A stretch of 64,000 nt of DNA from the NCBI GenBank assembly GCA_022072165.1, contig JAJVIF010000004.1, positions 79,667-143,666 of the forward strand. The letters run 5' to 3'. Position 1 is the first letter of the stretch. Each line of letters starts with the position of its first letter. Positions 7,990 through 59,158 of the stretch are shown piece after piece. The notes below the pieces were generated by a model, which saw only the letters and a list, made by a program, of their open reading frames with translations, did not search any database and was not told where the DNA came from. Source of the DNA: a bacterium. GTDB lineage: Bacteria; JAJVIF01. A program made the translations under genes and the position numbers.

Positions 7990-8300
7990 AAATGCGATCC
8001 CCTAAGTGGCCCCCGGTCGCTGCGCCATTCCCCGATCAAGCCCCCGGTCGCTGCGCGACCACCCCCTAAGCGGCCCCCGATCGCTGCGCGACCACCCCCG
8101 CAAGCGGGGGGGGGGAGGGAAGGTGTGCAAAAGCTCAGAGGGGCGACCGGGGGTCGCCCCTCCGAAAGTCGATGAATCATCTGGTGGGTCGACCTCCAGG
8201 TCGATGGGTGCTGGGACTTCAGTCCCCGACACACCAGCGCATGGACCCGTACGGACCAGACATCACGTCCCAGGTCTAAAGACCTGGTGTCCGGCGCAGC
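7990..8300. repeat. GC-rich palindromic intergenic repeat element, copy A (inverted relative to copy B at 28480..28840)
   Basis: Reverse complement of this segment shares blocks with 28480..28840: GGTCTTTAGACC(Y)GGGACGTGAT, GGGACTGAAGTCC, CCCATCGACCT(R)GAG(R)TCGAC, CCACCAGA, CCTCCCTCCCCCCCGCTTGCGGGGG, GAGGGGCGACC...GGTCGCCC. Confidence 0.7.
8011..8108. repeat. three imperfect tandem copies of a ~32-bp unit (AAGCGGCCCCCGGTCGCTGCGCGACCACCCCCT-like) inside repeat copy A
   Basis: Units at about 8011, 8041 and 8069, each containing the palindrome GGTCGC-TGC-GCGACC. Confidence 0.6.
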
Positions 8301-28479: not shown

Positions 28480-28840
28480 GAGCCCGGGTCTTTAGACCCG
28501 GGACGTGATTCTTGGCCCGCACAGCCCTATGTGTCGAAGCGTTAGGGACTGAAGTCCACCGACCCATCGACCTAGAGATCGACACCCCGGTCGACCATGA
28601 GGTCAACCCACCAGACCAATCGATTTCCTCCCTCCCCCCCCGCTTGCGGGGGGGGGGCGGCGCAGCCGCCGGGGACTTTCTCGGTGGGAGCGCAGCAACC
28701 GGGGGCTTCTGCGCCGCTCGCGCCGCAGTCCATACCGGAGAAAATTCGCATTGCACTCGACTCGGAGGGGCGACCCCCGGTCGCCCGGTGCCCCGACGCC
28801 CGCGTCGGTGGGGGCCGCGACGCCCCGTCGCGGATATGAA
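28480..28840. repeat. GC-rich palindromic intergenic repeat element, copy B
   Basis: Shares sequence blocks with reverse complement of 7990..8300; contains C8-GCTTGC-G10 (28634..28657) and GAGGGGCGACC-CCC-GGTCGCCC hairpin. Confidence 0.7.
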
Positions 28841-33482: not shown

Positions 33483-34781
33483 TTAGTAGTTCCAGAAGTC
33501 GGAGTACTCGATGGCTCCAAGAGGGGTGATGAGGTGATTGTGATGCGGCAAGCCTACTCCTGGCATGGCGACGACACCCTCAAAGTCGACTGGCTGTGAC
33601 GAGCCATCATGGATCAGCGTGCCATCGTAGGTCAGATCGTCATAGAATCCGTCGTCGTCTGTGTCTTTCAGCTCCACGATCATCTCAAAGACTGGAGCGT
33701 TCGACTCCCAGGTGTCTGGCTCGGGCTCTACGAACGGATGTCCGTCGGCATAACAACAACCGACGGGTGCGATGGTCCCGGTGTTGGTCCGAATTTTCGC
33801 GTGATAGATCAGCGATGACTTGTGCTCTTCGATCGTGGCTGTCCCAAAGGTGTTGAGATAGAAGGCGTCGGACCACAGGAAGAGATCCGGGGCGGTGGTC
33901 GACGGAATCGCGGCATTGCCAAGCATGGTGGACAATCTGCCGTATTCTCTGAGCCCAAAGGCGACAGTGGTTCCGGCCAAACCGTCTGCGACTCCCTGGC
34001 GATACACCTGCTCTGCCTGAGAGTGAGGGCCCCCTTCCGCATTGAATTCCTGGATCCAGCTTTTTAGAACCTGGCCGATCTGAATCCAGTTTCCGGTATG
34101 GGGCCGGGCGATCAGGAGATCGATGTAGGTCTCTTCAAGTTTCTGCTGCAGGGCCAGATCGTAGTCAGCATACGGAAACACGGACTTATCCAGCCGACCA
34201 GACTCCACGGCGATTCGCAGAAAGTCGCCATAAACCGTGATCAGTGGCAGGATTTGGACACCATAACGCTGTCGCTTCGTGGCTTCTCCAGCGAAGGACC
34301 AGTTGTCGAACTGGGGACCCGCCACCACTGGCTTCTTCCACTTGGCGGTGTGGTCCGCTGCATCGGTGGCGACGAGCTCCAGCATAAGGTTGCCCTCGCC
34401 TAACCGCTTGTCCGCCGTGAAATCGAGGCGAAAGGCGCCAGTCTGATGGTCGAAGTAAGAATTCGGTGCGGCCTGTAACAGGTGATCCAGGTTCAACTCT
34501 ACGGACTGCTGTGTCGAGATGTTCAGCACATGCAGCTTCAGGGCATTCGGGTCGCCAGGCGAGAGCCCCGCCTGAGACTGCACTGATCCCTCGAAGAGGG
34601 TGAAGCCGTGAGGGAGAAACTCCCAGGCGCCTGGAGTGGATGTCATGATGAGTTCGATAGGACCCGTTCCTGCCAGGCGGTCGGGCGTGGGGCTGGTCTG
34701 ATTGGGTTTCCCAGCCTGACAGCCGAAGAGACTCAGGCCAGCCAGGCACAGGAGGAACCAGAGGGATGTCGTGGCCTTCAT
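33483..34781 (-). CDS. lipoprotein, function unknown
   Basis: MKATTSLWFLLCLAGLSLFGC lipobox; start overlaps upstream gene stop in a TAATG arrangement at 34781. Confidence 0.6.
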   Translation of the reverse strand: MKATTSLWFLLCLAGLSLFGCQAGKPNQTSPTPDRLAGTGPIELIMTSTPGAWEFLPHGFTLFEGSVQSQAGLSPGDPNALKLHVLNISTQQSVELNLDHLLQAAPNSYFDHQTGAFRLDFTADKRLGEGNLMLELVATDAADHTAKWKKPVVAGPQFDNWSFAGEATKRQRYGVQILPLITVYGDFLRIAVESGRLDKSVFPYADYDLALQQKLEETYIDLLIARPHTGNWIQIGQVLKSWIQEFNAEGGPHSQAEQVYRQGVADGLAGTTVAFGLREYGRLSTMLGNAAIPSTTAPDLFLWSDAFYLNTFGTATIEEHKSSLIYHAKIRTNTGTIAPVGCCYADGHPFVEPEPDTWESNAPVFEMIVELKDTDDDGFYDDLTYDGTLIHDGSSQPVDFEGVVAMPGVGLPHHNHLITPLGAIEYSDFWNY

Positions 34782-35047
34782 TAACAGATACCTCCTCTCA
34801 GCGCGACCTGTCGAGCCGCTTCCCTACAGAGGTCGTTGACTGCTGTTGCTACGCCGGAGGGGACCTGACCACCACTATTGGTGCGAATCCAGTTCATGGG
34901 ATTTTGCAGGACGGTACCGATGCTGCCAACAACCCCGTTCGCTGCTCCCCCTGGCTGTGAACTGCATCCGGCCCACAGCAATGCGAGGACGAGTACGCTC
35001 ACTACAGGCCAGCTGTCACGGGGCCGCAGCTTGGTATGCTGTTCCAT
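34781..35047 (-). CDS. small lipoprotein
   Basis: MEQHTKLRPRDSWPVVSVLVLALLWAGCSS (lipobox LWAGC), AGAGGGA RBS upstream. Confidence 0.45.
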   Translation of the reverse strand: MEQHTKLRPRDSWPVVSVLVLALLWAGCSSQPGGAANGVVGSIGTVLQNPMNWIRTNSGGQVPSGVATAVNDLCREAARQVALRGGIC

Positions 35048-35086
35048 GTTGTTCCCTCTGTAAAGGGTTAGAGTGAATGCAATCTT

Positions 35087-35106
35087 ACACACACACACAC
35101 ACACAC
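35087..35106. repeat. dinucleotide microsatellite (AC)10
   Basis: ACACACACACACACACACAC sits 40-60 nt upstream of the 35047 start codon, in the divergent intergenic region shared with korA. Confidence 0.9.
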
Positions 35107-35304
35107 GACTGCCTGCGATGAAAATCTCAAAATTTTCTCTGGAGTTCCGCACTGCCCGACTGCCGGACAGTTTTGGGTACTGAAACGCAGAATTCCGCTG
35201 AAACTAGGGTAGAGTGTGTGCTTGTGTCCCGGCACTGGTTCGCCGGGCCAAACTGGGGTGTCCTGACCCTTGGACCACCCCCGAAAGTCAGGTTCCGGAG
35301 CATC

Positions 35305-39801: not shown

Positions 39802-40125
39802 CTACGGTGCCGCGGCAGCAGGAGGGCCACCGCCCATCATGTTTTCGCGCTGATAGACCGAGTGCCGGGGGGGACCCGCCAGGATCTCCATGCCCCAGCG
39901 CTGCGCGGCCCGGAAGGCATCGGACTGGATGAACGCCATGAATTGTTCCCGGGTCTCCCAGTTGCTGTAGATCATGTAGGAACCCTGCTGATTGACATCG
40001 ACATAGAGCCGGGTTTCCTGGTGTCCCTCCATCCCCTGCATGGCGGTGATAACGTCTTTGGTGTAGTTCTCGAAATCCGTCTCGTGGCCGGGTTTCACGT
40101 CGTAGTTAAGTCCGAAGGTGAGCAT
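39802..40125 (-). CDS. ABM-domain (antibiotic biosynthesis monooxygenase-like) protein
   Basis: About 107 aa from MLTFGLNYDVKPGHETDFENYTKDVITAMQGMEGHQETRLY, resembling ABM fold proteins. Confidence 0.55.
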   Translation of the reverse strand: MLTFGLNYDVKPGHETDFENYTKDVITAMQGMEGHQETRLYVDVNQQGSYMIYSNWETREQFMAFIQSDAFRAAQRWGMEILAGPPRHSVYQRENMMGGGPPAAAAP

Positions 40126-40212
40126 GGATAAGCCTCGTGCGTAGGGTCTCTCTCTCGTAGGGGCCGGACAAAACCGGCGGCTGAGGATAGTGCATCCTCC
40201 ACGCCGCAAATG

Positions 40213-40995
40213 TCACCGTTTCGCAGCGACCGGGGTCGCCTGCTTGCGGGGTGCGAGCAGGAGACGCTCGCCGGGATAGTCGATGTGACAGGTGTAGCGG
40301 CTCAGGATGCCGAGCCCCAGACGCCCCATCAGGACCGCACCAGTCTGTGGGACATGCACCGCTGGCCAGGAGGGGAGCGCCTGTTGTCGGCAGCGCAGGC
40401 CGGTGGTCTCAAAGCGGACCGGCCCACCAGACTCCTCCGGACTGGCGAAGCGCTCGATGTCAAAGCTCTCCGCTTCGATGAGGAGTCCTCCGGCGTACGC
40501 CGTCTCCAGTCGGACCTCCAGCGCTTCACCTGCCAACTGGAGCGGAATCAGAGCCTGTCGGTCTTCCAGGCGCAAGGGGAGCTCGTGCGTGACCTCAAAG
40601 GGGGGAGGGCCATCGAGAATCAGGGTCTGCTGATCCCAGTCGATCGTGAGGGCGATCTCGGCGAAGAGGGGATAGCCCAGGAGGCCCTGGATTGGCTGGC
40701 CGGTGGTAGCGCGATAGGGGAGGTCGACTGCCAGCACCTGGTCGGGCTGCTGCCGGAAGCGTCCCAGTTGCAGCAGTTCGCCCTCGAGGGTGTCCGCCTC
40801 GACTCCTTCCCCCTCGATGTCCACGCAAAGGGACTCCACCGCTTCCCCCTGCTCGATGGGGTGCATCCCCCGATGCAGGACATGCCAGCCAGCGGCGGAA
40901 TCGAGGAGCCAGGGGCCACGACGTCCGCCATAGACCACCTGCACTTCGATGAGATTGCCCGGTCCCCGGGCAAAGCCGACTGACAGCGGCGCCAT
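40213..40995 (-). CDS. hypothetical protein, possibly pepsin/retropepsin-like fold with degenerate active site
   Basis: LLDSAAGWHVL resembles the D(S/T)G(A) aspartic protease motif with Gly replaced. Confidence 0.4.
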   Translation of the reverse strand: MAPLSVGFARGPGNLIEVQVVYGGRRGPWLLDSAAGWHVLHRGMHPIEQGEAVESLCVDIEGEGVEADTLEGELLQLGRFRQQPDQVLAVDLPYRATTGQPIQGLLGYPLFAEIALTIDWDQQTLILDGPPPFEVTHELPLRLEDRQALIPLQLAGEALEVRLETAYAGGLLIEAESFDIERFASPEESGGPVRFETTGLRCRQQALPSWPAVHVPQTGAVLMGRLGLGILSRYTCHIDYPGERLLLAPRKQATPVAAKR

Positions 40996-42976: not shown

Positions 42977-43990
42977 TTACAGGTCGAGGAGTCCTGCAGG
43001 GAGCTTGCGCCAGACACCAGGCTGGTCGGTCTTGTACTGCCAGACCAGCGAGTTTTGCGAATCCAGCAGGGACTCATGGACGATCATTGCAAACCGCTGG
43101 TTCCGAAACTTCTTTCCGGCCGAAGGTTCCCCTCTGGTCAATTGTGCCTGCCGCTTGGGCGCTTCGCCCTTCTCCGATGATGGAGGGGTGGCGTACTCGA
43201 TGATGTAGTTTTCTGAGGTGGCGAACATGACCCACCGGGTATTGTTCACCTCATAGTGAAAGCGCCATTGGCCGGCCTGCGAATGCCAGACTTCCACCGG
43301 TCCGACTTCCTGCTCAATGATCTCCAGTGTCTGGGGGGGAATCCGGAGCCCGAGTTGTTTTTCCAGCCACTGCCCGCCAGGGACTTCGGACGCGGGGGCG
43401 AAAAGCAGTCCCCGGGCGATCCCGTGCAGCAGCTGGAGACCCAGTGGGTCGTGGATACTGAAGCGCAAAATGTGTGGCAGCTCCAGTTCATCCTTGGGGC
43501 GGGGACCCACATTGTGAAACCAGGTACCCTTCGTTTTGCCTTCAAACGGGGCCTCGACATACCAGAGTCCATTGGTGGACTTGTAGCAGCGCCAGCCGTG
43601 GGGTGGCATGACGTCCAGGCGGATGGGCATCAACTCCCCCTGGGCATCGAAGGGTACCAGCGGTAGCGGACTTTCCAGCTCGGGCTGACCGCCCCCGAGC
43701 CAGGCATGAATCACGTCATCCTGGTTACGGGTCGCCGTGCCGATGGCTATCGCAAACGCCTGCAACGAGTTGAAGAGACGTTGCTCCTCAGACTGATTGA
43801 GCCGCTGGGCTATGAACGCCTCCTGCTCTCGTGCTGCTTGCTGGCTTGCGGAGGCGCAACCGCAGCCCAAGATGACACTCAGCATCAGCAGGAGCACCCA
43901 ACCGGAGCCCACGTGGACTGGCAAGTTGCCTGAGCCATACGGCTGCTTCTGCCTATTCACAGCAGCTGCACAGGAAGAGTCTGTGAGCAT
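42977..43990 (-). CDS. lipoprotein, function unknown (downstream partner of Cys-rich protein 1)
   Basis: Hydrophobic segment plus lipobox WVLLLMLSVILGCGC; start uncertain (ATG 43990 or GTG 43913). Confidence 0.5.
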   Translation of the reverse strand: MLTDSSCAAAVNRQKQPYGSGNLPVHVGSGWVLLLMLSVILGCGCASASQQAAREQEAFIAQRLNQSEEQRLFNSLQAFAIAIGTATRNQDDVIHAWLGGGQPELESPLPLVPFDAQGELMPIRLDVMPPHGWRCYKSTNGLWYVEAPFEGKTKGTWFHNVGPRPKDELELPHILRFSIHDPLGLQLLHGIARGLLFAPASEVPGGQWLEKQLGLRIPPQTLEIIEQEVGPVEVWHSQAGQWRFHYEVNNTRWVMFATSENYIIEYATPPSSEKGEAPKRQAQLTRGEPSAGKKFRNQRFAMIVHESLLDSQNSLVWQYKTDQPGVWRKLPAGLLDL

Positions 43991-44495
43991 CTTTATCCTC
44001 CTCGGTGGGTTCAGGCCAGCAATGCAGGTGTTCCTGGCGGGGGCAGCAGGCGTCACAAATCTGATCGTCACCAGTCCAGATGGGCGGACTGGCCTCCTCT
44101 CTCCACGTAAAGCGTGCATCAACCCCTAGTTCCCCACACGGGATGGGTGGGAAGTTCCCAGGGTGCCCAGGATGCTCGTTCTCTATCTCCTCGTAAAGGC
44201 GCTTAAAGTCTTCACAGGTTTCCTGATTCACGCAGGCATACATAGCAGAGTAACCACCGTATTCCGCAGCGCCCCCAGAGATAGCGATGGGTTCTGAGCA
44301 GCTCGGAATCGGAAAGGTGTCACAACAGCAGATGAACTCCGAGAGTTCAAAGTCGAGCGTGGTGTAAAGCGAGATCGCGATCGGGACGCAGCACCCATCT
44401 GGCACGTTTTGCGCCTGGGAAGTCTTCGCGGGGGCTAGCTGTGTCGCGGCCAGCAGTAGCAGCAGCACTGAAAAGTGAAGGGACTTGTGTTTCAT
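43953..44495 (-). CDS. secreted cysteine-rich small protein 1
   Basis: Signal peptide MKHKSLHFSVLLLLLAATQLAPAKTSQA, AAGGA RBS, about 18 Cys including CC and CCC clusters; start overlaps upstream lipoprotein stop (ATGA). Confidence 0.5.
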   Translation of the reverse strand: MKHKSLHFSVLLLLLAATQLAPAKTSQAQNVPDGCCVPIAISLYTTLDFELSEFICCCDTFPIPSCSEPIAISGGAAEYGGYSAMYACVNQETCEDFKRLYEEIENEHPGHPGNFPPIPCGELGVDARFTWREEASPPIWTGDDQICDACCPRQEHLHCWPEPTEEDKDAHRLFLCSCCE

Positions 44496-45508
44496 CGGTT
44501 TTCATTCCTTTCTGGTGCAGACTCCAGACGTGGGACCTCGACATAATCCCACTGATGGGCGGAGAGATCTTCCCAGAGGACCATCTCCTGCAATTGCTGG
44601 GCGATGTGGGCCGACAGGCCTGACTTTCCATAAGGAATGGCAGGACGGTAGTTCAGCAACTTCTTTTTGGGATGAATCTGGAGGTCGTGCCACAAGTCAG
44701 GTATACCTGGACCTGTGAGATGGAGTGCCACTGCGGTGTTATCTGGACGTTTGTACGCCATGATCGAGGGATAGAGAGCCAGCAGGGCTTCCCAGGGCTC
44801 CTGCTGCATTTTGAGATGGAGCGCGTCGAATGCCTGCGACGGCGATTCAGGCATTTGTTTGTAGTACCAATGGTAATGAGTGATGATGCTTGCCAGACTT
44901 CCGGCCCTTCGTGCGCAGAGGTCCTCAGCATCTGGTTCGTGCTCGAAGCCCGGCTTATACTCGCCGGCCAGCGGACGCATAGGCTCATAGCCCTCCCAGC
45001 CGCCGTGAAGGGCCACCCCGAAGTGATCCTCAACCGGGTAGACCGCGATGCTCAACAGGGGCACATCCCCATGTGTCTGAACTACCGGCCAGGGCTCTCC
45101 ACTTTCAAGACAGGGCCAGTAAAGAACCTCAGACGCCAATTCGTTCCAGTTGTTTGGTGCAGTCAACCGGGCCGCTGATGGCACCGCAATTGGGCCAAAG
45201 TAGTAGTTCACCAGGGCCGAATTGACTTCCGCAAAAGTCAGACGTGCCTGGACTTTGGTGATCCCGAGTGGACCATAAGATCTGGCGACCTTCCAGAAGT
45301 CGAAGTAATCGACAGGTTTTTCCTGACGTTTGGTCGCAGTAGAATTCGCAGGCACTTGAGCCAAATCAGTTAGTTTTCCACTATCGCTGACCTGTACCGA
45401 TTTTTCGGCTGAGTTGACCCCGCTGCACCCCATCAGGTACTGGCAGGCCAAGGCAGTCATGAGAGCGACCGTGAGCACGTTCTGACGGGTATTTGTGCGC
45501 TGAGTCAT
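44492..45508 (-). CDS. lipoprotein, function unknown (downstream partner of Cys-rich protein 2)
   Basis: MTQRTNTRQNVLTVALMTALACQYLMGCSG (lipobox); begins 5 nt after the stop of the upstream Cys-rich gene. Confidence 0.55.
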   Translation of the reverse strand: MTQRTNTRQNVLTVALMTALACQYLMGCSGVNSAEKSVQVSDSGKLTDLAQVPANSTATKRQEKPVDYFDFWKVARSYGPLGITKVQARLTFAEVNSALVNYYFGPIAVPSAARLTAPNNWNELASEVLYWPCLESGEPWPVVQTHGDVPLLSIAVYPVEDHFGVALHGGWEGYEPMRPLAGEYKPGFEHEPDAEDLCARRAGSLASIITHYHWYYKQMPESPSQAFDALHLKMQQEPWEALLALYPSIMAYKRPDNTAVALHLTGPGIPDLWHDLQIHPKKKLLNYRPAIPYGKSGLSAHIAQQLQEMVLWEDLSAHQWDYVEVPRLESAPERNENR

Positions 45509-45513
45509 AGGTT

Positions 45514-46029
45514 TCAGCTCGCTTTCTTGTAAGGGCAAGGTGGCAAGTCTGTTTCACACCGCATTCGCGCTTCATGCGGGCAGAAGGGCTCATTGGGACT
45601 TTGTGGAATCGGACAGTCCACAAAAATCTGACCTGGGCATGGAGGTTGGCCTTTTTCTGCCGGCTCTATTAATGCAACAACGTTCCCATAACAGAGTTCC
45701 AGACACCAGCCTTGTCCATCCCTGATGCAGTCAGTGAAGCCTGGTGCAGCTTCAGCGCAATCACCGCAGCGGCACGCTGATCCAAAGGACTCGTTACATT
45801 TCTTGGAGCTTTGGGAAGAGATACCAATCCAGTAGGTCAGCCCGTTGGCGGCACAGTCGCAGGAGTATACTTCTTGGTCATTGCACGGTTCATCGTCTTC
45901 AGTACAAGTCAGGCAGCAATGGCCATAGGCATGAGCCTGACTGACATAACCTGCTTCCGGAGTCGTCCACAAGCTGCCGCACAGGAGCGCCAGGACGATC
46001 ACCATGAGACGTCTGATCTGCATCGTCAT
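45514..46029 (-). CDS. secreted cysteine-rich small protein 2
   Basis: Signal peptide MTMQIRRLMVIVLALLCGSLWTTPEAGYVSQAHA followed by YGHCC...; about 20 Cys. Confidence 0.5.
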   Translation of the reverse strand: MTMQIRRLMVIVLALLCGSLWTTPEAGYVSQAHAYGHCCLTCTEDDEPCNDQEVYSCDCAANGLTYWIGISSQSSKKCNESFGSACRCGDCAEAAPGFTDCIRDGQGWCLELCYGNVVALIEPAEKGQPPCPGQIFVDCPIPQSPNEPFCPHEARMRCETDLPPCPYKKAS

Positions 46030-46071
46030 CCCCCAAGAATGCTGGGGACTGCATACTAATGCACAAGGTTA

Positions 46072-46091
46072 CTCTCTCTCTCTCTCTCTCT
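46072..46091. repeat. dinucleotide microsatellite (CT)10
   Basis: CTCTCTCTCTCTCTCTCTCT sits 43-62 nt upstream of the 46029 start codon, between the M16 peptidase stop and the Cys-rich gene 2 start. Confidence 0.9.
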
Positions 46092-46136
46092 GTCAAGGCG
46101 ATGCCGGAAAATTATTGGCGATGAGCCGACACGCGG

Positions 46137-48866
46137 TTACTCCAGCGAGACGGCGGGGGTGAAGAGGTCGCCGGTCACGGCCAGCCAGGCATTGGCGGGC
46201 TGGAAGTACGTCGTCGCGACCCGGTTCGCCTCCTCCACCGTGACCCCGGCCATCCGCTGGAGGAGCTGCCAGTCGAAGTCCCAGGGGAGATCCCGGGCGA
46301 CATTGAGCGCCATCGCCTGTGATTGCGCCTGCATCCCAGCCAGCGACATCAGGGTTTGCCCCCTGCTGTAGGTGACAGCGGTTGCGAGCTCTTCGGCTGT
46401 GATGCCCTCGGTGGCGATGAGCCGAAACTCCCGCTGCAGGCCGGTGATGGCCTGCTCCCACATTTCAGGCCGTGTCCCAATCCGGGCCGACAGGATGCCG
46501 CCATCACGATACGCCTCCACCCGGGAATAGGTGCCATAGGCCAGCCCTTCCTTGCCCCGCAGCCGGTCAAACAGCCGGGAGAGCCAGCTGCCTCCCAGCA
46601 CCATGTTGACCGCCTGGATCGCCGGGAGGTCCGGGTCATGCAGGGCGACGCCGGGGAGTCCCAGCACACTCATCGTTTGGGCCTTGGCGGTCTGCTGGAC
46701 AATCCGCTGCAGGCCCGTGGCGCTCCGGGGGATAGCGGGAGAGAGCACGGTGCCGGTCTGACGTTTCCGCACCGGTAACCCTCCAAAAATGGTTTCCAGC
46801 TCAGGCTGCACAGTGGCGGGATCGATGTCACCTGTCAGGGTCAGGACTAACGTAGAGGGATCAAAGATGTGCACCGCGTGATCCAGCAGATGCTCCCGGG
46901 TCAGAGCACTGACCGCCGCAGGGCGTCCCAACGGCGGACGGCCGTACGCCACGTCCTGGCCCCACATCGCCAGCGTCAGCTGATCATGTGTGGTGTTGTA
47001 CGACTCATCGGCCCGGGCGGTGATCTCCGCGAGAAGGATGTCGCGGGCGACTGCCACTTCCTCTTCGGGGAAGGTGGCCTGACTGATGAGATCGGCGATC
47101 AACGGCAATGCTGTGGCGAGGTCATCGGCGGCATAGAGTCCGCTCAGCGAGGTGGTGTCGTAGCTGACACTCACTTCGAAGCGTCCGCCGAGGTGGTCGA
47201 TGAGTCCCAGGATGTCATCGGCAGAACGGGTGGTCGTCCCCTTGGTCAGGGTCCGCTCCAGCAGCGCGCCGAGTCCGTTGGTCTCCCAGGACTCCAGATC
47301 GAGTCCCTGCGGCGCGGCGAGAGTGAGCCCCACCGTCCCGGTCCCAAGGACCGGCTTCACCAGCACCCGCATCCCGTTCCGGAGCGTCAGCGTGGTGGGT
47401 GCCGCCCCCGCTCCGGCGGCCTGACTGGCGGGATAGATCGGCTGTGTGGATGTCCCCAGCCGGCCGATGTCGCCAGGTCGCTCCAGGGGAGCGGCTGAGG
47501 GGTCCAGCAATGACCAGTTCGGGGTCAGGGGAGCCGCACCAGTCTCGGCGGTGGCGAGGCCGAGGGTGATGTGCGCGGCGGGGAGGAAATGCTGCGCCGC
47601 CCACTGGACATCCGCAGCGTTGACCCCCGCCAGGCGAGCGGCATAGTCTTCGAAGAAGAGGGGAGACCCGGTGGCGTTGATGTAATAGCCGAGGGTGTAG
47701 GCCTGACTCTGGACATCCTCCCCCAGGAACAAATGCTGGAGCATCAGCTGTCGGCGCGCGCGGTCAAGCTCGCTCGCGGTGGGGCCCTGCTCCTTGAGCT
47801 GCCGAATGACCCTGAAGATTTCCTCGGTAGCAGCGAGGGTCTGCGCGGGGTCCGCCATCTCCGCGCTGAGCCAAAAGGCGGACTGCGTGATCAGTTCTTG
47901 TGTGCTGGTAGAGATGTCGGAGACGAGCCCGAGCTCGTCGCGCAGACGTCGCACCAGCCGACTTGCATCCCCCTGTCCGAGAATCGCGGCCAGCACCTGC
48001 AGAGCATAGGTTTCATCGGCACGGGCGGCGGTTGTGGGCCAGACAGCAGCGATGTGATTGGTGGCGTAGTCCCGGACTCCCACCAGCGACTGCGGCGCAG
48101 TCTGGGAGTAGGGAGTCGTGCCGGGGTCCGGGGCGATTTCAGTCGGCTGCCAGGCACTGAACTCTTCGGTGAGGATCTGCAGCGCATCCTCCGCGTTAAA
48201 GTCACCGACGGCAATGGTGAATGCGTTGTTGGGACCATAAAAGCGACGGTAGTACTCCCGCATCTGCTCATTGGTCTGGGCATCGAGGGTCGGGGCATCG
48301 CCGATGACCGGATGCCGATAGCCAGCGTGGGCCATGGCTGCCGGGAGCACCAGATCGCCCAGGAACCAGCCGGGGTTGTCGAGTCCCTGCCGGAGCTCTT
48401 CCTTCACGACTTCGCGCTCCCGTCCGAACTCGCTGTCCAGGAGCACGGGCTGGCTCACGAGGAGGGCGGTCATATGCGCGATTTCCCGGAGCTTGTCGGC
48501 GGGTCCGACATGGAAGTAGTTGGTGTTGTCCTGATCCGTGGAGGCGTTGTTGTCGATGGCGTTCTGAAACAGGATGCGGTTGAAGTCATCCAGGGGCATC
48601 CCGACTGATCCATCAAAGAGCATGTGCTCGAGGAAATGGGAGATGCCGGCATCGGCTGGTTGCTCGTTGCGGGCCCCGACCCGAAACCAGGTATTCACGA
48701 CCGCCACTGGCGCCGCGTGGTTCTCGACAATGAGCAATTGCATCCCATTGGGAAGGGTCGCCATGAGCATCCCCCCGGGAGTGCGGACCGGTTCGGCAGC
48801 GGGGGCAGGGGTGGCAACGGTGAGGGACATCAGGACTCCGGTGAGCAGCAGCACGAGGGCGCGCAT
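46137..48866 (-). CDS. secreted tandem M16-family zinc peptidase (pitrilysin/insulinase-like)
   Basis: Signal peptide MRALVLLLTGVLMSLTVATPAPAAEP; inverzincin motif HFLEHMLFDGS (HxxEH); about 900 aa consistent with two M16 units; GGAGG RBS. Confidence 0.85.
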   Translation of the reverse strand: MRALVLLLTGVLMSLTVATPAPAAEPVRTPGGMLMATLPNGMQLLIVENHAAPVAVVNTWFRVGARNEQPADAGISHFLEHMLFDGSVGMPLDDFNRILFQNAIDNNASTDQDNTNYFHVGPADKLREIAHMTALLVSQPVLLDSEFGREREVVKEELRQGLDNPGWFLGDLVLPAAMAHAGYRHPVIGDAPTLDAQTNEQMREYYRRFYGPNNAFTIAVGDFNAEDALQILTEEFSAWQPTEIAPDPGTTPYSQTAPQSLVGVRDYATNHIAAVWPTTAARADETYALQVLAAILGQGDASRLVRRLRDELGLVSDISTSTQELITQSAFWLSAEMADPAQTLAATEEIFRVIRQLKEQGPTASELDRARRQLMLQHLFLGEDVQSQAYTLGYYINATGSPLFFEDYAARLAGVNAADVQWAAQHFLPAAHITLGLATAETGAAPLTPNWSLLDPSAAPLERPGDIGRLGTSTQPIYPASQAAGAGAAPTTLTLRNGMRVLVKPVLGTGTVGLTLAAPQGLDLESWETNGLGALLERTLTKGTTTRSADDILGLIDHLGGRFEVSVSYDTTSLSGLYAADDLATALPLIADLISQATFPEEEVAVARDILLAEITARADESYNTTHDQLTLAMWGQDVAYGRPPLGRPAAVSALTREHLLDHAVHIFDPSTLVLTLTGDIDPATVQPELETIFGGLPVRKRQTGTVLSPAIPRSATGLQRIVQQTAKAQTMSVLGLPGVALHDPDLPAIQAVNMVLGGSWLSRLFDRLRGKEGLAYGTYSRVEAYRDGGILSARIGTRPEMWEQAITGLQREFRLIATEGITAEELATAVTYSRGQTLMSLAGMQAQSQAMALNVARDLPWDFDWQLLQRMAGVTVEEANRVATTYFQPANAWLAVTGDLFTPAVSLE

Positions 48867-50543: not shown

Positions 50544-50782
50544 GGGTTTCCTCCAGGCTGGGATTTGGGTGATCGGACGCGACAAAATCTACCCTGCTTC
50601 CTCATTGCAGTCAATGAGCTTTTCTAAAAAATGCGTCCATACTGAACGAGTTGCTGCAGCAATGCCGCCAGCGCTGCATCGCTGGTAGTATCAATCGGCA
50701 AACGGCGGTGGGTCTGAAGAGCAGTTTCCCGCATCGGGCAGTATCAGCTAAAGAGGGGAGCGAAGGCCGGTACAATCAGCAG

Positions 50783-54381: not shown

Positions 54382-54569
54382 GCTGAAGGGGCATTATGGA
54401 CGAGTCTGGCGGGTACAATAGTAAGTCGCGACCTCTGGCCACCGGTTCCGGTCCCTGGGCCTTCCACTGAGGGATGACAGGTGGAGAGAGAGATGCCAGT
54501 CGCCGCTGTCACCAGCCCGGCCGTCGTTGGCCCGGTGTTGCCCAGGAAGTAGTGAGGCTCGCCACTCTC

Positions 54570-59042: not shown

Positions 59043-59158
59043 GGCGGGACTCCTCGGCAGGACAGATACGTTGCCCCTGGTGGGGCGTTGTCGGGGGGAG
59101 TGATGCCGCCCCTGCGACGGATTCCGCGCAGTTTGTGCAGAAAATCCAAAATTTCTTT

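Follow-up and report, generated by a model that had tools for sequence, protein, structure and literature searches.

A candidate promoter-spacer dinucleotide repeat upstream of an orphan exported-protein operon in an uncultured, high-G+C bacterium

A perfect 20-nt (CT)10 repeat occupies positions 46072-46091 of the window, the whole 64,000-nt stretch of contig JAJVIF010000004.1 (assembly GCA_022072165.1) analysed here, and reads as (AG)10 on the minus strand, which carries the genes on either side of it. To judge from the sequence, this AG tract most likely belongs to a kind already known, in which slippage switches gene expression or tunes it. More specifically, we consider the chances about even that it is a promoter-spacer repeat through which slippage changes transcription of the operon downstream (genes A to D). 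In the proposed mechanism, (AG)n would form the spacer of a sigma-70-type promoter, TTGACA-(AG)n-TA(A/T)CCT, that drives this operon. Slipped-strand mispairing in replication would add or remove AG units and shift the distance between the -35 and -10 elements in 2-bp steps (17 bp at 9 units, 19 bp at 10 and 21 bp at 11), and promoter strength would follow spacing, most probably peaking at 9 units and being low at 10-11. Members of one population would then differ, heritably but reversibly, in how strongly they express a set of hyper-divergent exported proteins. We infer that the hexamers work as a promoter, that the best spacing is 17 bp (9 units) and that switches occur often.

To our knowledge, switching of promoters by repeats has been described almost exclusively in host-adapted pathogens whose genomes are A+T-rich or small. 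In the window, such an architecture appears to occur twice within 64 kb, once with AG and once with GT units, in a 64% G+C environmental bacterium known only from metagenomes, and both tracts precede orphan exported proteins, which are unusually divergent in the case of genes A and B. If this reading is correct, contingency-locus biology would extend to uncultured free-living lineages, orphan pairs of a Cys-rich protein and a lipoprotein would probably be under strong fluctuating selection (for example from phage, predators or interactions at the surface), and the signature TTG...(NN)n...TAnnnT would help to find such loci in metagenomes.

An uninterrupted dinucleotide tract is flanked by promoter-like hexamers

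The AG tract lies 43-62 nt 5' of the first ATG (46029) of gene A, a 171-aa open reading frame (ORF) with a signal peptide, and 49-68 nt 5' of its second ATG (46023), which has the better Shine-Dalgarno sequence (GGGGG, 46030-46034) and is where gene callers place the start on related contigs. The tract is contained in the 107-nt gap between the stop codon of an M16 peptidase gene (46137) and the first ATG, and the neighbouring genes are all on the minus strand. Phase variation of the intragenic frameshift type was ruled out, as the tract precedes the start codon and is cut off from gene A by an in-frame stop.

Only two dinucleotide runs of more than five units occur in the window (63.6% G+C), the AG tract and a sister GT tract, and no dinucleotide run of at least six units was present in ∼106 kb of bacterial DNA from unrelated loci. 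The chance of a 20-nt perfect dinucleotide run, estimated from base composition as an order of magnitude, is ∼1e-7 per 64 kb. Simple sequence repeats were found in a survey to be generally suppressed across prokaryotic genomes (PMC4060949), and dinucleotide runs never exceeded five units in four Haemophilus influenzae genomes analysed (PMC2651432). Chance or an assembly artefact was ruled out as the source of the AG tract, because independent Logan contigs from four other SRA runs also contain it. An earlier note on this DNA had placed a perfect (CT)10 at this distance from the first ATG, in intergenic DNA immediately before the first gene of a Cys-rich/lipoprotein operon; had called so long a dinucleotide repeat unusual in a high-GC genome; had pointed to a second one (35087..35106) at the same relative position before another secreted-protein operon; and had suggested that changes in repeat number could alter promoter spacing or the 5' UTR, as in classical slipped-strand phase variation. 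The statements on the two tracts are borne out: the distance is exact when measured from 46029, the second tract is where it was said to be, and a run of this length is by our estimate far beyond chance. The suggestion on spacing is supported in part, by the -35-like and -10-like hexamers that flank the AG tract and by copy numbers that differ between natural samples (see below).

The elements of the locus, all on the minus strand, are as follows.

46108..46116, minus strand: A+T-rich block AATAATTTT, 11 nt 5' of the -35-like hexamer, in a UP-element-like position
46091..46096, minus strand: TTGACA, a perfect -35-like hexamer, whose final A is base 1 of the tract
46072..46091, minus strand: (AG)10 tract, uninterrupted, the proposed promoter spacer
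46066..46071, minus strand: TAACCT, a -10-like hexamer immediately 3' of the tract (TATCCT in two other alleles)
46030..46065, minus strand: predicted 5' leader, with the conserved TTGTGCATTAGTA, a CCCC...GGGG hairpin and the Shine-Dalgarno sequence GGGGG (46030-46034)

On the gene strand, the order is GGCTCATCGCC AATAATTTT CCGGCATCGCC TTGAC(AG)10 TAACCT TGTGCATTAGTATGCAGTCCCCAGCATTCTTGGGGG ATG. TTGACA is the exact sigma-70 -35 consensus, while TAACCT begins right after the final G of the tract and agrees with TATAAT at T1, A2 and T6, and the 19-nt spacer that separates them at (AG)10 consists of repeat only. By its position, the A+T-rich block may be a UP element, and transcription is predicted to start near 46060 (minus strand). 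TTGAC[A/T] occurs at 28 sites in the window, five intergenic and 23 coding, and a TAnnnT is present 15-21 nt 3' of it at three of the five intergenic sites as compared to none of the 23 coding sites (Fisher P ∼0.003; ∼0.017 without the AG locus). The other two intergenic pairs are at 50614 (N17, TAGATT) and 9198 (N18, TAGGTT). This enrichment makes it unlikely that the hexamers flanking the tract are coincidental, and sigma-70-like promoters appear to be used in the source genome.

Two other assignments were rejected. Sigma-54 and extended -10 readings of the AG locus were judged by eye against the consensus sequences and do not fit, as the GG/GC spacing and the TGn motif are absent. An alternative -10, TAGTAT (46058-46053), loses its invariant T in two alleles, and its -35 position would fall inside the repeat.

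AG copy number differs by whole units on identical flanks

Relatives of the AG locus were recovered by exact-protein look-ups from four SRA runs besides the window. Comparison of repeat number across samples, a check that the earlier note had proposed, gave 9, 10, 10, 10 and 11 units, with the following copy numbers and -10-like hexamers (L numbers are our handles for related contigs).

Window: 10 AG units, TAACCT
L001, SRR5266476: 10 AG units, TATCCT
L004, SRR27760788: 10 AG units, TATCCT
L002, SRR34423826: 11 AG units, TATCCT
L003, SRR23375769: 9 AG units, TAACCT

With 9, 10 and 11 units, the spacer measures 17, 19 and 21 nt, respectively. The flanks of L003 are the same as those of the window at every base, yet it has 9 units where the window has 10, indicating that the AG tract changes by whole units in nature. 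Three intergenic alleles are represented, with 7-10 differences over 87 non-repeat positions. Invariant across all three are TTGAC and indeed the whole of TTGACA, the tract as a perfect repeat, TA.CCT and the next 13 nt (TTGTGCATTAGTA); position 3 (46069 A/T) is the sole variable site in the -10-like hexamer, and the A+T-rich block is still A+T-rich in all alleles despite two single-nucleotide polymorphisms (SNPs). This is the pattern of conservation that a working promoter of such a layout would show.

The intergenic alleles also differ in a second way. L001 and L004 have 10 SNPs relative to the window inside the 107-nt intergenic region (window 46035-46132), as against no coding difference in L004 and one in ∼1640 nt in L001, and the three promoter alleles are mosaic relative to one another. 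This suggests that the regulatory region was replaced by recombination in L001 and L004, that is, a promoter-allele replacement. Replacement of intergenic DNA by recombination, termed 'regulatory switching', has reportedly been observed in E. coli; the crowding of the L001 and L004 SNPs in intergenic DNA is alike, while the repeat itself is left unexplained by such a process.

A sister GT tract is maintained in divergent lineages

The sister tract and the operon that follows it are as follows.

35087..35106, minus strand: (GT)10 sister tract, (AC)10 on the plus strand, 40-59 nt 5' of the ATG at 35047
35082..35087, minus strand: TAAGAT, a -10-like hexamer whose T is the last base of the tract (TACGAT in distant relatives)
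33483..35047, minus strand: second operon, comprising genes for an 88-aa lipoprotein (34781-35047) and a 432-aa lipoprotein (33483-34781)

The (GT)n before the second operon appears to be built like the AG locus, with TTGTGT at the 5' edge in relatives, TA[A/C]GAT at the 3' edge and a 17-bp spacer in two lineages. The tract was found in ten related contigs. It is 20 nt long throughout the window lineage (two alleles, seven sequences from six SRA runs plus the window), 25 nt in L016 and L017, whose lipoprotein is 90% identical, and 23 nt in L018 (75% identical) and L019 (59% identical), so that the anchor-to-anchor distances of 21, 25, 23 and 23 nt differ in steps of two. TA[A/C]GAT starts at the last T of the GT run in 4/4 lineages, and in these four lineages the Shine-Dalgarno sequence and start codon follow the -10-like hexamer at a fixed distance. 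In L016, L018 and L019 a T precedes the run and gives TTGTGT, which is separated from TACGAT by N17 in L018 and L019; in L016 the spacing is N19. The intragenic frameshift type was ruled out at this locus as well, by the conserved Shine-Dalgarno sequence and start codon 3' of the tract in all lineages.

The sequence around the GT tract has changed far more than the tract: flank identity is 54-68% for the window versus L018 or L019 and for L018 versus L019 upstream. At ∼40% flank divergence, we calculate a chance of ∼4e-5 for an uninterrupted run of at least 20 nt in four lineages; such a run is therefore very unlikely to persist without selection or continuous slippage-driven homogenisation. 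This bears directly on whether the tracts are functionless microsatellites, that is, slippage products in permissive intergenic DNA that hitch-hike with their operon beside coincidental hexamers. Conservation at the AG locus alone is not significant and would agree with that explanation, as by our own calculation 20 nt would remain unchanged ∼19% of the time at ∼8% flank divergence. It does not account for the persistence of the GT run, for two tracts within 64 kb that lie equally far from a start codon and each end at TA...T, or for the absence of other long dinucleotide runs from the window and the control loci, and we regard it as unlikely.

Persistence of an unbroken run could also be due to DNA structure. 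If (AG)n formed H-DNA and (GT)n formed Z-DNA under negative supercoiling, the two promoters would become supercoiling-sensitive, and the tracts would be kept for their structure and not for their mutability. The homopurine mirror repeat (AG)10 and the alternating purine-pyrimidine repeat (GT)10 are the two classic types of non-B-forming dinucleotide, both tracts are 20 bp in the same position, the GT run is perfect across lineages in spite of the divergence of its flanks and invariant in seven samples, and such motifs are otherwise suppressed in prokaryotes (PMC4060949). However, lengths that change in unit steps and the hexamers at the edges are explained more simply by a promoter spacer. Moreover, (GT)n or (AG)n tracts of 20-25 bp are no longer than what is needed to flip under physiological superhelicity, and a purely structural role seems to us very improbable.

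Observations that weigh against a promoter spacer

Several observations weigh against the promoter-spacer reading. The five measurements of the AG tract all come from assembled consensus sequences, and the 9-unit value was obtained from a circular Logan contig, in a sample in which the unit is seemingly duplicated (see below). The commonest state, 10 units, corresponds to a 19-bp spacer, which is suboptimal for an E. coli-type sigma-70; a promoter scan restricted to spacers of 16-18 nt found no promoter at the AG locus; and TAACCT, with agreement to TATAAT at just 3/6 positions, would be a weak -10. The host is deep-branching, the M16 peptidase of the closest GTDB species representative being 29% identical, and the sigma-70 consensus may not be that of the host. 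The GT tract has 10 units in every one of the seven samples of the window lineage, and this lineage has a C before the run, giving TCGTGT with a 15-nt spacer, so that the -35 assignment is weak there. The narrow length bands at both loci fit stabilising selection at least as well as free switching. Lastly, no terminator was found 3' of the M16 peptidase gene, and read-through could thus place the tract inside an mRNA.

The tract could instead be a rheostat or phasing element that sets the distance and helical phase between an upstream site and the -10, with stepwise tuning like that of Helicobacter pylori sabA. The upstream partner could be a working -35 or an activator or UP site 5' of the tract, or the promoter could be of the extended -10 type. 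The poor -35 at the edge of the GT tract in the window lineage speaks for such a role, and an extended -10, TGTG-n (TGTGT-AAGATT), is an alternative reading of the GT locus, where TGTG-T-A[A/C]GATT fits TRTGn. Several blocks 5' of the GT tract are conserved (T-rich runs, GGCA(T/G)C and the palindrome TGTCCG-N5-TCGGGCA), an ATTTTC...CATCGC motif is common to both loci just 5' of the tract, and the mechanism is documented (PMC4081817). At the AG locus, however, a perfect TTGACA abuts the tract with TAnnnT directly after it, unlike a sabA-type tract, which sits 5' of the -35. A rheostat of this kind is conceivable, though on balance we think it unlikely.

The tract could also lie within the transcript. 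If the promoter lies upstream, for example around an AATAAT block, or if the M16 gene is read through, (AG)n or (GU)n could act in the mRNA leader as a binding site for a protein or an Hfq-type factor or by affecting stability or translation. In addition to the lack of a terminator after the M16 gene, the window allele has AATAAT (5/6 versus TATAAT) 20 nt 5' of the tract, and a hairpin that would sequester the Shine-Dalgarno sequence can be drawn in all alleles. However, AATAAT is not conserved (ATTAAA and ATTAAT in the other alleles) and has no -35 partner. The leader hairpin is predicted in all three alleles but is no stabler than in shuffled sequence (z -0.4 to 0), and neither the AG nor the GT intergenic region matched an Rfam family at E up to 1; an Rfam scan of the whole window at the gathering threshold returned one tRNA and nothing else. 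AG and GU repeats at the same position are also chemically different and would be hard for one RNA-binding factor to recognise. Overall, a role in the leader appears quite improbable.

Relation to known repeat-controlled promoters

The promoter-spacer reading, which we prefer to these alternatives, would place the AG locus in a known family, that of hifA/hifB and porA. Membership is probable, with the position between functional -35 and -10 elements read from sequence, and three of the six defining traits of the family are seen: an uninterrupted tract of at least ∼8 units, length differences of whole units and exported products. The closest parallel is the hifA/hifB fimbrial promoter of H. influenzae, which has (TA)9-11 between -35 and -10 (PMC2651432; PMC3899988). 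In both cases a dinucleotide of ∼10 units lies between these elements (-like hexamers at the AG locus), changes in 2-bp steps and ranges from 9 to 11 units, and where hif controls surface structures, the products of the AG locus are likewise predicted to be exported. The differences are also considerable. The hif repeat has TA units, belongs to an A+T-rich host-restricted pathogen, serves overlapping divergent promoters and has been demonstrated experimentally to switch, whereas the tracts described here have AG and GT units, belong to a 64% G+C uncultured environmental host, have in the case of AG a unidirectional promoter and are known from sequence alone. The deep conservation of the sister GT tract is a further difference.

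The poly-G tract of Neisseria meningitidis porA also lies within the -35/-10 spacer and, depending on its length, makes transcription of an outer-membrane protein graded or on/off, and outer-membrane-protein promoter repeats of Bordetella pertussis and Mycoplasma hyorhinis have been cited alongside it (PMC3899988). These repeats are homopolymers and gain or lose 1 bp at a time; each change at the AG locus is 2 bp, and only every second spacer length can therefore be reached. The promoter-proximal T-tract of sabA (PMC4081817) is alike in that an A+T-rich, UP-like block lies 5' of both tracts here. It lies 5' of the -35 and adjoins it, whereas the AG tract is 3' of its -35-like hexamer, and the GT locus is ambiguous in this respect. 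A bolder proposal is that promoters of Cys-rich/lipoprotein operons in this lineage have a dinucleotide tract as their whole spacer, with AG or GT kept at ∼20-25 bp in the long term, either as a lineage-wide 'phasome' of a free-living bacterium or as conserved H-DNA/Z-DNA supercoiling sensors; this we consider doubtful.

The operon downstream of the AG tract encodes orphan proteins, two of them hyper-divergent

The genes around the AG tract are as follows.

Stop codon at 46137, minus strand: upstream neighbour, gene for a 914-aa two-domain M16 peptidase
45514..46029, minus strand: gene A, 171 aa (169 from the second ATG), Cys-rich, with a signal peptide, first gene after the tract
44492..45508, minus strand: gene B, 338-aa lipoprotein, lipobox LMGC
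43953..44495, minus strand: gene C, 180 aa, Cys-rich, with a signal peptide, 4-nt overlap with gene B
42977..43993, minus strand: gene D, ∼338-aa lipoprotein, lipobox ILGC, last gene of the operon

Genes A-D are packed tightly or overlap on the minus strand, and the signal peptides of A and C and the lipoboxes of B and D, read directly from the sequences, suggest that all four products are exported. No Pfam match was obtained for the products of A, B, C or D or for the 88-aa and 432-aa proteins of the second operon. Gene A has only two other clusters at 90% identity among 5.8 billion protein sequences, and gene B has only eight representatives among 1.84 billion proteins. In the NCBI metagenome-assembled genome (MAG), locus tags GEEBNDBF_02595-02606 cover the match to the window; since the tags of gene B and the M16 gene are consecutive and leave no number between them, gene A is probably unannotated there. 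The AlphaFold model of the gene B product was unusable (predicted local distance difference test (pLDDT) 33), and comparisons of A with C, of B with D, of B with the 432-aa protein and of A with the 142-aa protein found at the GT locus of relatives revealed no paralogy.

The gene A-D block of 3.3 kb has a G+C content of 54-60%, below the window average. In L015, whose M16 peptidase is 63% identical, the block is missing, and a small Zn-ribbon ORF and a photolyase gene come next, in that order, after the M16 gene. Given its low G+C content and its absence from L015, the block looks like a lineage-specific insertion. Within the block, genes A and B stand apart. As compared to L002, DNA identity is 92-96% for the 3' end of the M16 gene, C and D, and falls to 77.5% for A and 70% for B, although the signal-peptide part of gene A is 97% identical; at the amino acid level, A is 75% and B 67% identical. 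Synonymous divergence (dS, Nei-Gojobori) between the window (44492-46029) and L002 (971-2502) is 0.80 for A and 1.06 for B, as against 0.06-0.26 for the flanking genes (M16 0.23, C 0.26), indicating that the A-B cassette carries much older alleles than its surroundings. The ratio of nonsynonymous to synonymous divergence (dN/dS) is 0.22-0.24 for the two genes (0.22 for gene A), from which it follows that A and B are real genes. Hyper-divergence of this kind is usual for surface-antigen or receptor loci with allele replacement or balancing selection, and hyper-divergent exported products are the typical company of contingency repeats.

The same cassette may be duplicated in some samples. L003 is a circular Logan contig, in that its first 30 nt are the same as its last 30 nt, and in it the opening 59 nt of gene C run directly into the final 46 nt of the M16 gene (window 44437|46185). 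The junction reads GACACAGCT|GGCCGTCACC, with GCT microhomology, and defines a duplicated unit of 1.75 kb (window 44437-46185) that consists of the M16 end, the AG promoter region, A, B and the start of C. L001 covers precisely this promoter+A+B unit, and L013 and L014, M16 contigs from other runs, both stop exactly 30 nt beyond a T/C SNP (46150), which is where a k=31 merge node would be expected to end them. Taken together, these contigs suggest that 2-4 SRA samples contain the promoter+A+B cassette as a head-to-tail duplication or a circle. In the window, this arrangement may be collapsed or absent.

The second operon and the region upstream of the GT tract

In both tract-bearing operons, the first gene encodes a small Cys-rich exported protein and the next a lipoprotein, with no sequence similarity between the operons. 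Relatives have as the small protein of the GT operon a Cys-rich lipoprotein of 142 aa (L016 1116-1544, L018 361-789, L019 3024-3440), from which the window lineage differs by a 54-aa in-frame deletion that removes six cysteines. The AlphaFold model of the 432-aa lipoprotein has a pLDDT of 46 overall; its one confident part is a beta-strand domain (about residues 40-155), which can be read as Ig-like. Metagenome scans with the AG-locus flanks and with the GT-locus pattern gave 0 matches in a collection that seemingly does not contain these organisms, although L016 is a JGI contig.

Two further elements lie 5' of the GT tract. The palindrome-like TGTCCG-N5-TCGGGCA (35155-35175, minus strand) is conserved ∼60 nt upstream and could be an operator. 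A strongly conserved hairpin, CCCGGC...GCCGGG (35225-35260, minus strand), is probably in the leader of a divergent 2-oxoacid:ferredoxin oxidoreductase gene. Both elements persist in lineages with ∼40% flank divergence.

Other observations in the window

A REP-like dispersed element, CCCCGGTCGCTGCG(CGACC), has 13 matches at up to two mismatches as compared to 2.5 expected by chance, with copies in regions 8011-8115, 28634-28704 and 40222-40235. Three close copies at 8011-8088 are followed by a G10 run (8106-8115), and two copies lie beside a C8...G10 pair at 28634-28657. Shorter dinucleotide runs were also seen: a (GA)5 run at 40147-40156 (minus strand) has a CCCTAC direct repeat on its flanks and lies ∼22 nt 5' of the ATG at 40124, and another at 54484-54493 (plus strand) lies at the 5' end of an ORF whose start is at 54474. 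Two A+T-rich motifs that resemble each other, GAAAATTTTGAGATTTTC and AGAAATTTTGGATTTTC, are present at 35121-35138 and ∼59135-59158 (minus strand), 5' of two different minus-strand genes, and may represent a shared promoter or regulator site.

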